Under the pieces are notes generated by a model. It was not told the DNA's origin. It made no database searches and worked only from the letters and a program-made list of their open reading frames with translations. Of a DNA stretch of 64,000 bases, positions 1,023 to 55,501 are shown piece after piece. The stretch is from NCBI RefSeq assembly GCF_036365525.1, contig NC_090411.1, forward strand, positions 32,194,432 through 32,258,431, given 5' to 3'. A program made the translations under genes and the position numbers. The DNA comes from Heterodontus francisci. Lineage: Eukaryota. Positions within the stretch are counted from its first letter, which is position 1; each line of letters starts with the position of its first letter.

Positions 1023-3181
1023 ATGGCTTCCCAAGTGTGTCAGAACTACCACAAGGACTGTGAGGATGCTGTTAACAAGCAGATCAACCTGGAGCTCTAT
1101 TCCTCCTATGTTTACCTGTCCATGGTGAGTGTTGTATTCCTTGTTACTGCATTCTGAAAAGTGGGAATTTCTCTAGTGTAGTTAACTAGCTTTAAACAAT
1201 ATTTATCTGTGAAATATTTGGGTGGGGAGGGGAGCAGTGGGATTCTTTGAATAGTGAGTGCTACAAGTGTGCAATATGGGGGGGGGGGGTGGTTCTTGTG
1301 AGTTAATGGACTGCTCCTTGTAGCAGCTGTTCTCTATTGAGTTTTTTTAATATGTAAAACTAGCTTAGTTACTACTTTGGGTTTGTAACTGATCACAAAC
1401 CTGATATTTAGATTGTTTAATTTAATAATTAGCAAAGGTTCAGTCTCCATGGAATGGCTTATTCTCCTCCTACTTTTTAAAAAAAAAAAGAAATCAGTGG
1501 GACAGCTTTTACTGCCTTAGGTCCCAAGTACTTTATAGTCAATGAAATGCTGTTTTTCTAGTGTCAACACTTGTAAAATAAGAAATGCAGTAGCCAATTT
1601 GTACAGAAAACTCTCAATAATGGGATAGTAATTGGACACTCTCTGGTGCATTGATATTTGGTTGTGATAAATGTTGGCATTCTACTGGAGAGAACTTTTA
1701 ACTTCTTTAAAGTAGTGTGATTTACGTTCAGCTGATGGGACCTTGGGTTAATATATCCTCATGTCCCTACCTAAAAATAGGAGGGAAAGCTTGGAGATTA
1801 GCTTGACTGCAATGAAAGGTCATTACAATCCTATTTCCTTTCTTTAGGATAACTTTCCCCTCTTGAACCTTCAAAAACAATAAATTGAATTTTGCTAGTT
1901 AACAAATATCCATTTTCTCCAAGATTGAGACCTTGCGAATTGGGGTATTTGGTCTTGTCTATAATATTATGATCTAGATCTAGCATGAAGCTGTTTAAAT
2001 TCTCTCCGCAGTCCTATTACTTTGACCGGGATGATGTTGCCCTGCGTCACTTTGCTGAGTTCTTCAAGGAGCAGTCACATGAGGAACGGGAGCACGCTGA
2101 GAAACTGCTGAAATTCCAGAATAAACGTGGAGGCCGAATCATCTTGGAGGACATCAAGGTTGGATTCAATGAATGATTGGCCTCCTGTCTGGATCATTTT
2201 TAGATGGAATTAAATGGGAACCAGTTCTGTGGTTGTGGTGGTTTTCATGCAGCAATTTTATATTCTAACTTTGGTTCCTAGTAAAATGGACTTCTATTTA
2301 CCTTTTACTTGTTTGTTTTAATCCATTGTAAGTGAACTGTCTGACTTTCCTCTTCAGAAGCCAGAGCAGGAAGAGTGGGGCAATGGTCTGGAGGCAATGC
2401 AGAGAGCTCTGCAGATGGAGAAGGATGTGAACCAGAGTCTGCTGGATCTGCACAAACTCTCCACTGGCAACACTGACCCTCATGTAAGTTCTTCATGTGG
2501 CCTATTGAATGAAGTGGTGGTTTAAACTTTTCCCATTCAAAAGGTCTCCATTCTCAAATAGTTTTGTGTTGGGGTGGCTCATTTGGGATTCTTCTGTTGG
2601 GGTGGATGGTTGGGGGATTGTATGGTGTTCAGGTGGAGGGAAGGGATGTTGGTCTATTAACGGAGTGAAATGTCAGTGATCCTGGGATCTAAGCACTTAT
2701 GCAAATCTTGCATGAATCTCCACTGCACCTCTTGACGACTGCCCTCCAGATTTAAGCAGAAGCAATGGTGGCATGAAGAAAGTTTTCTAAGTGGTTAGCA
2801 TCTGAAATCCACTAAGAGGAGGCATGTTTAATGGAGGGAACTTTTTTCTGTTCAGAATGTGCTGGGTTATGGGCAGAAGGCAGGGGAGTGGCTCAAGATA
2901 AATTGCTCTTTGGAAAGCCAGTGCAGACATTGGTTTTCAATTTTAGTCTTTAGTCAAAGCCAAGCTCTCTCTGCTTTGTATCTGCTGCTGGATATAACTA
3001 ACTGCTTTTTCTCCCCCACCCCCAGCTTTGTGACTTCCTGGAGACTCACTACTTGGATGAGCAAGTGAAGATGATCAAGAAGCTTGGAGATCACATCACC
3101 AACCTGAAGAGACTGGGAGTGCCTGACAATGGCATGGGAGAGTACCTGTTTGACAAGCTCACCCTGGGGGAGAGTGACTGA
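1023..3181 (+). CDS. FTH1-like: Ferritin H/M-type subunit, copy 1 (176 aa, intact)
   Basis: Exons 1023-1124, 2012-2158, 2358-2483, 3026-3181 (102/147/126/156 nt, all GT-AG, phase 0, the vertebrate ferritin layout). [45 protein letters not shown]...[10 protein letters not shown]...|KPEQEEWGN...|[16 protein letters not shown]...TLGESD*. Ferroxidase E24,Y31,E58,E59,H62,E104,Q138 present (human H E27,Y34,E61,E62,H65,E107,Q141). AATAAA at 3315-3320. Confidence 0.96.
1520..1760 (-). mobile_element. DeuSINE/SacSINE-like relic in intron 1 (same position in copies 1-4: also ~9463-9712, ~15140-15290, ~23860-24080)
   Basis: Motifs gtgcttt..agtcaatgaagtacttt, cagccaatttg, ggagaact...gaaatag...ggtttaa resemble the reverse complement of the Deu domain as I recall it; not database-checked. 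Confidence 0.5.
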
Positions 3182-52557: not shown

Positions 52558-55501
52558 CATCTAGAATCAGTAGAAGTAGTTTCATTTTCCTCCTAAGAGA
52601 AAAGTCTGGGCTGGAGCCCAATCTTTCAGCTGCTGGAGCCTCCAATTAATCAAATTAGATGTGCTCTTTCTAATGTGGAGAGAGACTGTTCAACATTGTA
52701 ACCAACCATTTAGTATTATAAACTTTTATATTGTTCAAATAACCAGAATTGACTGTTCAAAACAGACTGGTGATGGCACTGCACAAATCTTGATCTGCTA
52801 GGAGATCATGGAATTGCATGTAGTTAAAATTTTAGCCTGGCATAACTTCTATTCTCTTTGCAGTCTTGTTACTTTGACTGGGATGATGTTGCCCTGCGTC
52901 ACTTTGCTGAGTTCTTCAAGGAGCAGTCACATGAGGAACGGGAGCAGTCTGAGAAACTGATGAAATCCCAGAATAAACGTGGAGGCTGAATCTTGGAGGA
53001 CATCAAGGTATCCTCTTCAAGCTTCTTTGACTTGTGCACTTTTTTTGCCCCCCCCCCCTCCAAGAAAAAGAGCTTAAATTTCAAATTTAAGAAAAACTTG
53101 ATTTTAAAATGAACTGTCCATTCAATTTGCTTTGAAGGCTCATCTTTAATGAGATTCAGTCTTTGATTCACTTGGAGATGGTGGGAGGTGGTATTCCATT
53201 AAAGGCAATGAATCATGGCATATTGCCAATATGGGGTAAAATGTGGAATAACCCCCTCCCACCATGTGATTATATTGCTTTGGCCAACTACCCTCAAGGT
53301 AGTTGCAGCCTTCAATTTCCTTCTATTGAAGTTACTTTTTTTCCCTCAAAAGTAACTTTTTTTTCTCTTTCCAGAAGCCAGAGCAGGATGAGTGGAGCAA
53401 TGGTCTGGAGGCAATGCAGAGAGCTCTGCAAATGGAGAAGGATGTGAACCAGAGTCTGCTGGATCTGCACAAACTGTCCACTGGCAACACTGACCCTCAT
53501 GTAAGTTTTTGCAGCTTTAATGCGCTTGAGATTTCCAGGTCAGCTGAGGCAGTTGCTGGAAGTTGTATCTGTCCTTGTAGCCCTATTCAAAATGCCCCCA
53601 AAACACTAGCTTTGTGTCTTGTAATTTATTCCCTGAGAACTGGTTTCTTTGAAAAGCTGGTATAGTAGCTGGGCAATTGAATATAGATGTCCAAAAGTAT
53701 AACTACTTAGGTGTTGGTAAATTTCAGGGTCTGTCTTCTGTTCAATAACATTTGGATAAATTATATTCCAAAATCTTGATGTCCCTTCCAATTTCATTTT
53801 ATTGGATAAGATACACATGTAGCAGGGAGGAACCAATTCTTTTCCCCCCTGCTGGAGATGTTTAGCACTCAGTTGCAAGTTCAAAAGACTTCCTTCCCAG
53901 GCTTGTGAATTTCTTTCTTTCTCTAGTTGTGACTTCCTGGAGTCTCACTACTTGGATGAGCAAGTGAAGATGATCAAGAAGCTTGGAGATCACATCACCA
54001 ACCTGAAGAGACTGGGACCCCCTGAGAATGGCATGGGAGAGTACCTGTTTGACAAGCACATGCTGGGGGTGAGTGACTGAACTGACTGCAAGGATCAAGC
54101 TTGTGTTTTATTTAATGGTGTGTAAACGATCCCTCTGTTCTGTAGGGAATGATGGCTTCTGACTTTATACCAAGAATTGAGACCTGATCTCTTGTTGGAA
54201 TGTTAACTGTAAATAAACGACACAATATTGGACTGCTTTGTCTCCTTGTTAATCTGAAAATAAGGAACTATTCAAATTTACACTGGTTTATGTCTGGAAG
54301 TATCACACTGGGCTCTGTAACAGCTTTACCATGGGGAGATTTTATTGCCTTGGATGTTTAAGATCTCATTACAATTCTTTGACTGCACAACAATGACTTG
54401 CATTTATATAGTGCCTTTTAACATATTAAAACATTCCAAGATGCTTCACAAGTGTTAAACAAAGTGTGACACTGAGCTACATAAGGAGGGAAGACAGGTG
54501 CTCAAAGGTTTCCTCAAGAAAGTCGATTTTAAGGAATGTTTGAGACACAGTTGGGGAGAGGACTCTAGAGGTTGGGGCCTAGGTAGCTGAGTATGAGTTG
54601 TTCCTACTGCTGCTGAATATTTTCTTGCCTTGTTAGTTAGCACAAAGCCCAAAACTAGTAATCTAGTCACCAAAGACCCATCATTCACTCAACCACAGTG
54701 ATTTCTGAAATTGCAATGAGTGACATGTCCAGTGCCAGATAAACAATTTAAATGATCTAGCCTTGCATTATCCATTGAGATAAGTTCACTTGTGTACAAG
54801 TGACCACAGTGCCTGGACAACACTTGCACTCGTGGAATTACTCAGGGAAACAAGTGACACTATACGCTGGTGCTAGTACTAATGATTCTTCATGGAGCCA
54901 CCAATAATACATGTCAACCCTTGGTCAGAGGATGAGATAAGAACTGATATTCTGAGCTATCTCAACACCAGATTCTTTGCTAGATTGAGCAATCTGTTCA
55001 AACTTGTTTGCACTTGGAACCATTCCTTCACATACCACGTATTCTGTTGCATAAATTGGTGTTACAATTAGTCCTGCATCATCAGTCTGCCATATCCTGT
55101 CTAATTATTCTAGCTTAGATCAAAAATGGTTACACCCTGCAATACCCAATCTACAAACTGTAAATTCCATTCACCAAAAGGCTATCTATCACAACTGGAG
55201 GGAGATTGATTTGACAAGCAGCTGGCAACTATATGTACCTTGGGAGGGAGAATGTTCACCTGTGTGGGATGGAATATCAGGAGGTTTCGTAAGGAATTTA
55301 CAAAATCTGTGTAGGCATGTGTGTTAATTAATAAACTGCCCGTCTCTTTCTCTGTTACCTCTATTTTTCTGACTGGTATTTCCCTTGACTCTATTTCTAT
55401 ATCTTTTTAAATCTCAGTTCACTTCTTTTTCTGATGGATGTTTTGTTTTGCGCCTGTCACCTTGTTATTCCCCCCATCTCTGTATCCAGCTGAGGTGAAC
55501 T

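Follow-up and report, generated by a model that had tools for sequence, protein, structure and literature searches.

The window analysed here is a stretch of 64,000 nucleotides of the Heterodontus francisci genome (contig NC_090411.1, positions 32,194,432 to 32,258,431 of the forward strand; coordinates below count from its first letter). It forms the right end of one tandem array of ~600 kb with 91 ferritin loci (FTH1b/middle-type); a second, smaller ferritin cluster of 14 copies is located on C41. All data derive from a single haplotype, using the assembly sequence itself rather than raw reads. The window contains the following features:

1023..3181, + strand: copy 1 (g84), intact; exons 1023-1124, 2012-2158, 2358-2483, 3026-3181
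8850..10985, + strand: copy 2 (g85), intact; exon 3 at 10330-10455
14669..16683, + strand: copy 3 (g86), intact; exon 3 at 15955-16080; lineage B with a lineage-A intron 3
17514..21134, both strands: retroelement fragments between copies 3 and 4; reverse-transcriptase ORFs 17514-18569 (-), 18410-19156 (-), 19968-21134 (+)
23422..29263, + strand: copy 4 (g87), intact; exons 23422-23523, 28276-28422, 28629-28754, 29108-29263
33482..36594, + strand: copy 5 (g88), intact; exon 3 at 35463-35588
38884..41741, + strand: copy 6 (g89), intact; no close relatives of its introns 2 and 3
46080..47883, + strand: copy 7 (g90), partial, without exon 3
49254..54080, + strand: copy 8 (g91), broken; exon 3 at 53375-53500
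60814..62897, - strand: old ferritin gene, exons 2-4, with 29-36 mismatches per exon; it escaped homogenisation and served as control

Intron 1 of copy 4 measures 4752 nt and contains an insert. The retroelement fragments at 17514..21134 are bystanders. Pfam Ferritin (PF00210) was matched on each of the four exons of copy 4, and the database protein P0038 has middle-subunit ferritins as first matches (E 5e-88), its closest solved relatives being middle and heavy chains. An iron-responsive element in the 5'UTR is typical of vertebrate ferritins; within the window no Rfam family attained its gathering score. Relatives group into two clusters at 90% identity, with 138 and 180 members, of which those listed are labelled as several sharks. 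The FTH1b label of the array genes is based on similarity and on the naming of Yang et al.

Shark ferritin clusters have been published before. Passages of Sahm et al. (bioRxiv 10.1101/2024.09.09.611499) give a shark ferritin cluster an age of 250 million years, describe it as syntenic in Greenland and white shark, and report ovary-specific expression of the Greenland shark cluster; those of Yang et al. 2026 (PMC13214024) describe FTH1b clusters of 55+4 copies. Like the clusters described there, the present one pairs a large tandem array with a lesser cluster of that contig, and has four-exon genes and some truncated copies. The main texts of both papers contain 'conversion' and 'concerted' 0 times each, and 'intron' is absent from that of Yang et al. 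Literature searches on shark ferritin conversion, master-gene wording and cDNA-mediated paralogue conversion, in a coverage outside which most subscription journals lie, turned up no report of the pattern described below.

The sequence-only reading of the window had proposed that exons are homogenised while introns diverge, and its examples are correct. Exon 3 is identical in copies 3, 4 and 5 (0 mismatches/126 nt), and copies 1 and 4 agree throughout exon 2 (0 mismatches), copy 5 differing by 1. Copy 4 has an intron 2 of 206 nt and copy 5 one of 1101 nt, with a best local alignment of only 12 columns. The claim that silent sites are homogenised too is borne out in exons 2 and 3 and in the core of exon 4 but fails for exon 1: across the array, four-fold diversity (pi4) of exons 1 to 4 is 0.212, 0.038, 0.032 and 0.099. 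A 15-mer before exon 2, which had been taken to favour a DNA template, occurs unaltered in copies 2-5 and with one difference in copy 1, and copies 6-8 lack it; because copies 1-5 have one intron-1 lineage and most of the motif belongs to the splice acceptor, it argues for such a template only weakly.

One exon-3 sequence is common to 45/86 array copies. In simple simulations (a Moran array of constant size without population polymorphism, run in 2-10 replicates with parameters chosen by hand), absence of conversion left 0 copies identical to the majority and a four-fold divergence (p4) of 0.42; neighbouring old ferritin genes differ from the array majority at 53/125 four-fold sites. Comparison of silent with intron divergence over 1973 pairs, which the sequence-only reading had named as a check, bore out the contrast, p4 of exons 2+3 remaining at 0.015-0.036 in all classes from an intron-2 p of 0.03 to unalignable. 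Exon 1 p4 climbs from 0.028 to 0.251 along with intron 1 divergence. As exons 2-3 stay flat while exon 1 tracks its own intron, homogenisation is centred on the internal exons. Two non-coding lineages, A with 37 copies and B with 20, are unalignable in each of the three introns for 740/740 A-B pairs, and silent Fst between them is 0.51, 0.07, 0.01 and 0.14 for exons 1-4. Within exons 2-4 diversity is U-shaped, lowest mid-exon. Identity is raised 30-60 nt into the intron at 4/6 intron ends, with no such rise at 2/6, although this may reflect splicing constraint rather than conversion. There is no neighbour effect: rare-allele sharing is 0.014-0.020 whatever the distance between copies. GC-biased conversion as a driver is unsupported (GC4 0.47-0.62; A/T-to-G/C minor alleles no commoner).

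Introns themselves have moved between copies. Intron 2 of g63 and g36 is identical at 207/208 positions while their introns 1 and 3 are unrelated; g21 intron 2 resembles that of g35 (243/248), whereas introns 1 and 3 of g21 match those of g36; and lineage-B intron 2 is found in six A copies. In the window, intron 3 of copy 3 (16081-16527), a lineage-B gene, belongs to lineage A (386/447 to g71), constituting a whole-intron swap. Such swaps, which differ in age (190/209 and 207/208 identity), are stronger proof of a DNA template than the shared 15-mer. Shorter tracts also appear to travel, although conversion and double crossover look alike when patchy tracts are read from one haplotype: 43 pairs have at least two rare non-CpG alleles in common across diverged introns (3/43 due to mis-extended exon-4 starts), and mid-frequency variants have spread between lineages in exons 2 (sites 97, 137, 139) and 4 (site 134). 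Copies 2 and 6 share five exon-3 alleles common to these two alone, though all their introns are unalignable. This tract may be a retained old allele; a new mutation was rejected as its origin, since retrocopy L084 has the same Glu-Arg, as do Heptranchias-labelled pieces (24/24 and 23/24).

Broken copies are also cleaned by homogenisation. Copy 8 has 21 lesions/241 nt in exons 1-2 versus 1/126 in exon 3, and the pseudogene pair g20/g37 has 16 lesions/231 nt in exons 1+4 versus 1/273 in exons 2+3 (Fisher p 5e-5); the load is equal in broken and intact copies. Taken over the 91 loci, intron swaps, travelling tracts, U-shaped diversity and cleaned broken copies support the short-tract, exon-seeded, DNA-templated gene conversion first suggested from the window, with the two refinements that exon 1 is mostly spared and that the process seems directional rather than neutral. 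We thus consider it likely that array copies overwrite each other's exons by DNA-templated gene conversion, probably with a net pull to the majority sequence.

Could the exons instead have been overwritten mainly from cDNA of pooled mRNA, via a germ-line LINE reverse transcriptase? The nearby reverse transcriptases seen by the sequence-only reading are present as RVT_1 ORFs within the window, eight independent intronless retrocopies of the array on other contigs (9/16 loci fetched) indicate that array mRNA gets reverse-transcribed, and donors from a transcript pool would be biased to working genes; in the second cluster, moreover, p4 falls 3'-ward (0.107, 0.102, 0.030, 0.000; few sites). However, the main array is without 3' bias (0.041, 0.024 and 0.045 for exons 2-4), 3'UTR identity is 0.67-0.86 and not above that of introns, and intron loss is nil, the shortest among 84, 85 and 87 introns measuring 631, 192 and 270 nt. 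Since swapped introns cannot travel by cDNA, and retrocopy UTRs point to more than one source gene, from lineage A as well as B, we regard this route as very unlikely. An assembly artefact, in which polishing with wrongly mapped short reads gave exon centres the majority sequence, would likewise yield a star-like spectrum and U-shaped diversity; judged on internal evidence of the assembly, it is highly improbable. In the array 72 distinct exon-2 and 39 distinct exon-3 sequences persist, with recurrent CpG transitions, rare alleles are common to twins in opposite arms more than 100 kb apart, and swapped introns have graded ages. The intronless retrocopies would be the best mismapping targets, yet keep private differences (L081 11, L082 34), and proteins of other sharks display the same uniformity within species.

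The least credible account dispenses with conversion and invokes birth-and-death duplication together with strong silent-site selection. Ferritin is conserved, and older retrocopies have no non-CpG allele in common against the present majority in exons 2-3, as this account would have it. Against it, the silent sites of twins diverge at intron pace (0.011 versus 0.011) before levelling off, the load does not differ between broken and intact copies, and exon 1 diverges freely in the same genes; intron swaps require exchange and, with the cleaning of pseudogenes, contradict it as sole cause. The second cluster was rejected as a clean no-conversion control, its exons 3-4 being likewise more uniform than its introns. 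A recent sweep in exons 2-3 is unsupported, given older retrocopies without a non-CpG ancestral allele there, a comparison of weak power.

Within DNA-templated conversion, the process looks directional rather than neutral. When unbiased conversion was simulated at c/mu 2500, D came out near 0 and twin sharing at 0.04-0.05, compared with observed values of -2.5 and 0.33 (exon 3). Simulations with one to three donors, or with S=1 on all sites, came close to the observed values. Rejected settings were donors weighted by likeness to the acceptor (plateau 0.28-0.32 in 3 settings), amino-acid-only selection with unbiased conversion (plateau 0.26) and ten donor loci (plateau 0.08). A master model left 25-33% of copies with the majority sequence, versus 52% observed, and as every array copy carries some load over exons 2-4 (at least 1), no master locus was identified. 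In these models, a net pull towards the majority, from few donors or from weak selection even at silent sites, fits the low plateau as well as the rare alleles that twins retain. That conversion is unbiased, the star-like pattern stemming from array history outside the simulation (block duplications, uneven rates, population structure), appears unlikely. Shared mid-frequency variants at the sites in exons 2 and 4 given above speak for it, as does human Y palindrome arm-to-arm conversion, reported (PMC8600007) as unbiased towards the ancestral state. However, unbiased runs at c/mu 60, 300 and 2500 each failed on the plateau, or on D and twin sharing, and a recently small array cannot rescue the idea, since 34-39 intron lineages remain even at 10% divergence.

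For directional, DNA-templated conversion we envisage the following course. Protein-level selection would have kept exons alike enough to pair after introns had drifted, so that exons became the only landing sites. Most tracts would stop before leaving the exon or no more than ~60 nt beyond it, some spanning exon to exon and taking the intron along, and the short first exon would seldom be overwritten. Simulation suggests a per-site reset ~60-120 times faster than mutation, with variants erased more often than spread; the bias might come from few preferred donors or from weak selection on the whole exon sequence, in an array that probably supplies a single protein in quantity. Less likely is the stronger proposal that few donors or an active-gene repair bias reset the internal exons of ~90 genes, dead ones included, while divergent introns prevent collapse of the array; it would represent a working case of master-slave rectification, common to sharks for hundreds of millions of years.

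Known gene pairs, in the passages describing them, share homogenised coding and diverged non-coding parts; unlike those pairs, the array has ~90 intron-bearing copies, exon-by-exon islands of 126-147 nt, an escaping exon 1 and whole-intron swaps. One-way correction, which fits the simulations, recalls the master-slave 'rectifying' model (reviewed in PMC3924832) and the Y-palindrome debate on ancestral bias (PMC8600007). In contrast to that model, there is no identified master locus here, weak selection fits equally, and minority alleles also pass from copy to copy. The hadal snailfish likewise has a tandem ferritin expansion, of fthl27 (14 copies; PMC10746142), in a report whose passages do not treat the exon-intron contrast. 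Shark ferritin expansion is now linked, as a repertoire, to longevity and ferroptosis; if exons are continually overwritten, the array instead yields a single protein in quantity, and for these genes trees built on coding sequence, ages given to copies and dN/dS mislead. Having ~90 copies, lineages labelled by old introns that no longer align, pseudogenes and fossil retrocopies, it allows tract limits to be measured and could test the directionality of ectopic conversion in a large family, a long-standing question.

Compared with other sharks at the protein level, exon 3 has a p of 0.026 within the species versus 0.081-0.142 between species. Paralogues are thus closer within than between species, as in concerted evolution, at the protein level; for exon 1 (0.056 within, 0.043-0.160 between) this pattern is unclear. 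Shark ferritin proteins also have lineage-fixed residues: Asp159 is present in 56/57 pure A/B copies, while Glu is the majority in 10/11 other shark labels. In Heterodontus no more than one old retrocopy and 4 broken copies still have the Glu159 codon, and exon 4 of copy 8 carries it.

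With 590 kb of left and 10 kb of right flanking sequence added to the window (G000:C41:32194432-32258431), an array of 91 ferritin loci (g01 to g91) was found across C41:31.645-32.249 Mb, of which a script scored 68 as intact, 15 as broken and 8 as partial; g28 and g43 were scored as broken solely through mis-extension of the exon-4 start by the script, and were treated as intact from the load comparison onward.

Window 1023-54080, + strand: ferritin copies 1-8, four-exon (array loci g84-g91)
Window 60814-62897, - strand: old diverged ferritin, exons 2-4, 20-30% diverged from the array
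Window 23524-28275: the 4752-nt first intron of copy 4, containing an insert (about 4 kb) of higher GC content
C41:26.667-26.839 Mb (L061-L079): second ferritin cluster, 14 copies and one decayed

The sequence-only reading held that exons are homogenised by short-tract gene conversion while introns diverge. Every exon-identity and intron-length figure behind it was reproduced on recheck; the feature is real, and the conversion reading is supported with refinements. Among ungapped near-full exons, to which the array statistics were confined (79, 84, 86 and 87 copies for exons 1 to 4, out of 91 loci), four-fold diversity was 0.212, 0.038, 0.032 and 0.099, respectively, and 45 of 86 copies shared an identical exon 3. 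Binned by intron-2 divergence, the four-fold distance over exons 2 and 3 was 0.013 for twins, i.e. copies closely related by their introns (intron-2 p <0.02), and 0.015-0.036 in each older class, 1973 unalignable pairs included, while that of exon 1 climbed from 0.028 to 0.251 along with intron 1 divergence; as pairs are non-independent, these binned distances are descriptions rather than tests. Silent divergence similar to that of introns, named beforehand as contrary to the reading, was thus seen in exon 1 only and not in the other exons. Ferritin four-fold sites are free to change, since old neighbouring ferritin genes differ from the array at 53 of 125 of them. Exon 2 showed recurrent CpG decay at Arg codons in many copies (to Cys, His, Trp, Gln or stop); 6 of the majority sequence's 7 CpGs lie in this exon, where 0-fold diversity is 72% of the 4-fold value.

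The non-coding DNA of the array falls into two lineages, A and B, such that all 740 pairings of a pure A copy (37) with a pure B copy (20) were unalignable in each intron. Silent Fst between them fell from 0.51 in exon 1 to 0.07 and 0.01 in exons 2 and 3, respectively. Introns have also been exchanged: six A copies (g51, g55, g57, g60, g63 and g67) carry a B-type intron 2, matching g36 at 207/208 positions in g63, 164 kb away, and at 190/209 in g60; g21 acquired its intron 2 from g35, and window copy 3 is a lineage B gene with a lineage A intron 3. Five exon-3 alleles are common to window copies 2 and 6, and to no other array copy, despite unalignable introns between the two, and the intron relatives of copy 2 have the majority exon-3 type.

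Silent-site Tajima's D was -0.5 in exon 1, -2.1 in exon 2 and -2.5 in exon 3, with star-like spectra in exons 2 and 3. Twins had reached about half of the plateau at which silent divergence stops rising, and shared 33-57% of rare alleles, versus 1-2% for distant pairs. In simulations of 86 copies at constant size, unbiased conversion reached the plateau only near a conversion-to-mutation ratio (c/mu) of 2500, where D was about 0 (-1.5 to 1.8, 10 runs) and twin sharing 0.00-0.17; at lower rates the plateau stayed at 0.15-0.28. A single master at c/mu 60-120 gave a plateau of 0.03, D of -2.1 to -2.3 and twin sharing of 0.5-0.6, three donors came close to the observed values, and unbiased donors with scaled selection S = 1 at all sites gave 0.018, -2.1 and 0.50, respectively. 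Neither amino-acid selection alone nor a donor competition model matched the data. From these rough simulations (2-10 replicates, parameters set by hand) we infer a net bias towards the majority sequence, which either few donors or weak selection could cause. One-way rectification of the array exons appears rather unlikely.

Broken copies bear on the cause of the bias. In the g20/g37 pair, exons 1 and 4 bear 16 lesions over 231 nt, whereas exons 2 and 3 bear a single one over 273 nt (p 5e-5); window copy 8 has 21 over 241 nt of exons 1 and 2 versus 1 over 126 nt of exon 3 (p 0.002), both cases having been chosen after inspection and many broken copies being young or related. Mean load was similar in broken and intact copies. 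Broken copies, too, are thus being cleaned, and their equal loads favour a mechanistic cause. Asp159 is present in 81 of 87 array copies spanning both lineages, and the Glu159 codon, the state of most other sharks, remains only in four broken copies (three independent) and in the retrocopy L082/L083, which makes it likely that the derived Asp159 spread between old lineages. Glu159 surviving among array copies only in broken ones favours instead selection, or indels that block conversion.

Intron identity was raised 30-60 nt in from the exon at four of six ends (alignable pairs, 150 sampled per intron), otherwise unalignable introns share identical stretches, as long as 56 nt, at their ends, and diversity is U-shaped inside exons. 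Together with the intron swaps, this sequence pattern points to a DNA template. A shared 15-mer before exon 2 had been offered as an argument for such a template; the conclusion stands, but the 15-mer itself contributes little because copies 1-5 have one common intron-1 lineage. Overwriting of exons from cDNA would find material at hand, as 9 of 16 fetched intronless loci (8 independent) derive from the array, yet we regard it as very unlikely: no array copy has lost an intron, 3'UTR divergence equals that of introns, and array exons show no 3' bias. The UTRs of these retrocopies are nearest to differing copies of both lineages. L082 and L083 (C48, about 100 kb apart) were duplicated after insertion, since their differences from the array are identical.

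That exon uniformity is a polishing artefact of the assembly is scarcely credible, given the numerous distinct exon types with CpG-type changes, the rare alleles that distant twins have in common, the private differences retained in retrocopies and the graded age of the intron swaps. Proteins of other sharks are, moreover, equally uniform, each species having its own fixed residues at the protein level (no more than 15 listed members of each cluster; entries under H. francisci excluded as possibly the same genes).

The shark ferritin cluster itself has been published (Sahm et al., bioRxiv 10.1101/2024.09.09.611499; Yang et al., PMC13214024), in main texts from which the words 'conversion' and 'concerted' are absent. 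Concerted evolution limited to coding parts is described for the amylase genes of Drosophila and for ribosomal-protein gene pairs in yeast (PMC3924832, PMC3924837), a published opinion holds that introns may stabilise duplicates (PMC9220161), and mammalian X-linked ferritin genes have reportedly undergone conversion (PMC2724270, PMC5363321). Our literature searches, which reached few subscription journals, found no paper on homogenised exons with diverged introns in shark ferritin arrays; this analysis adds the gradient from exon to exon, the exchanged introns, the evidence from pseudogenes and retrocopies, and the finding that unbiased conversion fails to fit.

The 26 leftmost array loci lie on the - strand as an inverted block (C41:31.645-31.815 Mb, L038-L055), which pairs in mirror order with a + arm at 31.82-31.96 Mb; mirror pairs g06/g48 through g21/g36 differ by about 1-2% in introns, and the arms make up a large old palindrome. 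Three or more old ferritin genes, each single and 20-30% diverged from the array, follow on its right in alternating orientation (window 60814-62897, L060, L080). In the second cluster, 14 copies alternate between two types with alignable introns (p 0.09-0.12); exon 4 shows zero four-fold differences in 13 complete genes, and the cluster has retrocopies of its own (L090, L091).

Exon-4 ends (e.g. window 3181, 10985 and 36594) define three C-terminal types of 173, 175 and 176 aa, which track the lineage of the 3' flank. Lineage A has far shorter 3'UTRs than B, and its promoter regions, 90-330 nt upstream of the ATG, are 87-97% identical, versus about 83% in introns. The window gave no Rfam match at the gathering threshold, the iron-responsive element included, and the copy 4 insert no terminal repeats and no ORF >147 aa. 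Among the matches listed, the database proteins nearest to the window copies are shark ferritins, the top one labelled Heterodontus francisci. P0067, a 90-aa protein labelled Salmonella ferritin inside a shark ferritin cluster, is likely mislabelled or a contaminant, and P0001, P0004 and P0070-P0079 (264-721 aa), in which ferritin segments recur, resemble gene models that join adjacent copies into one.
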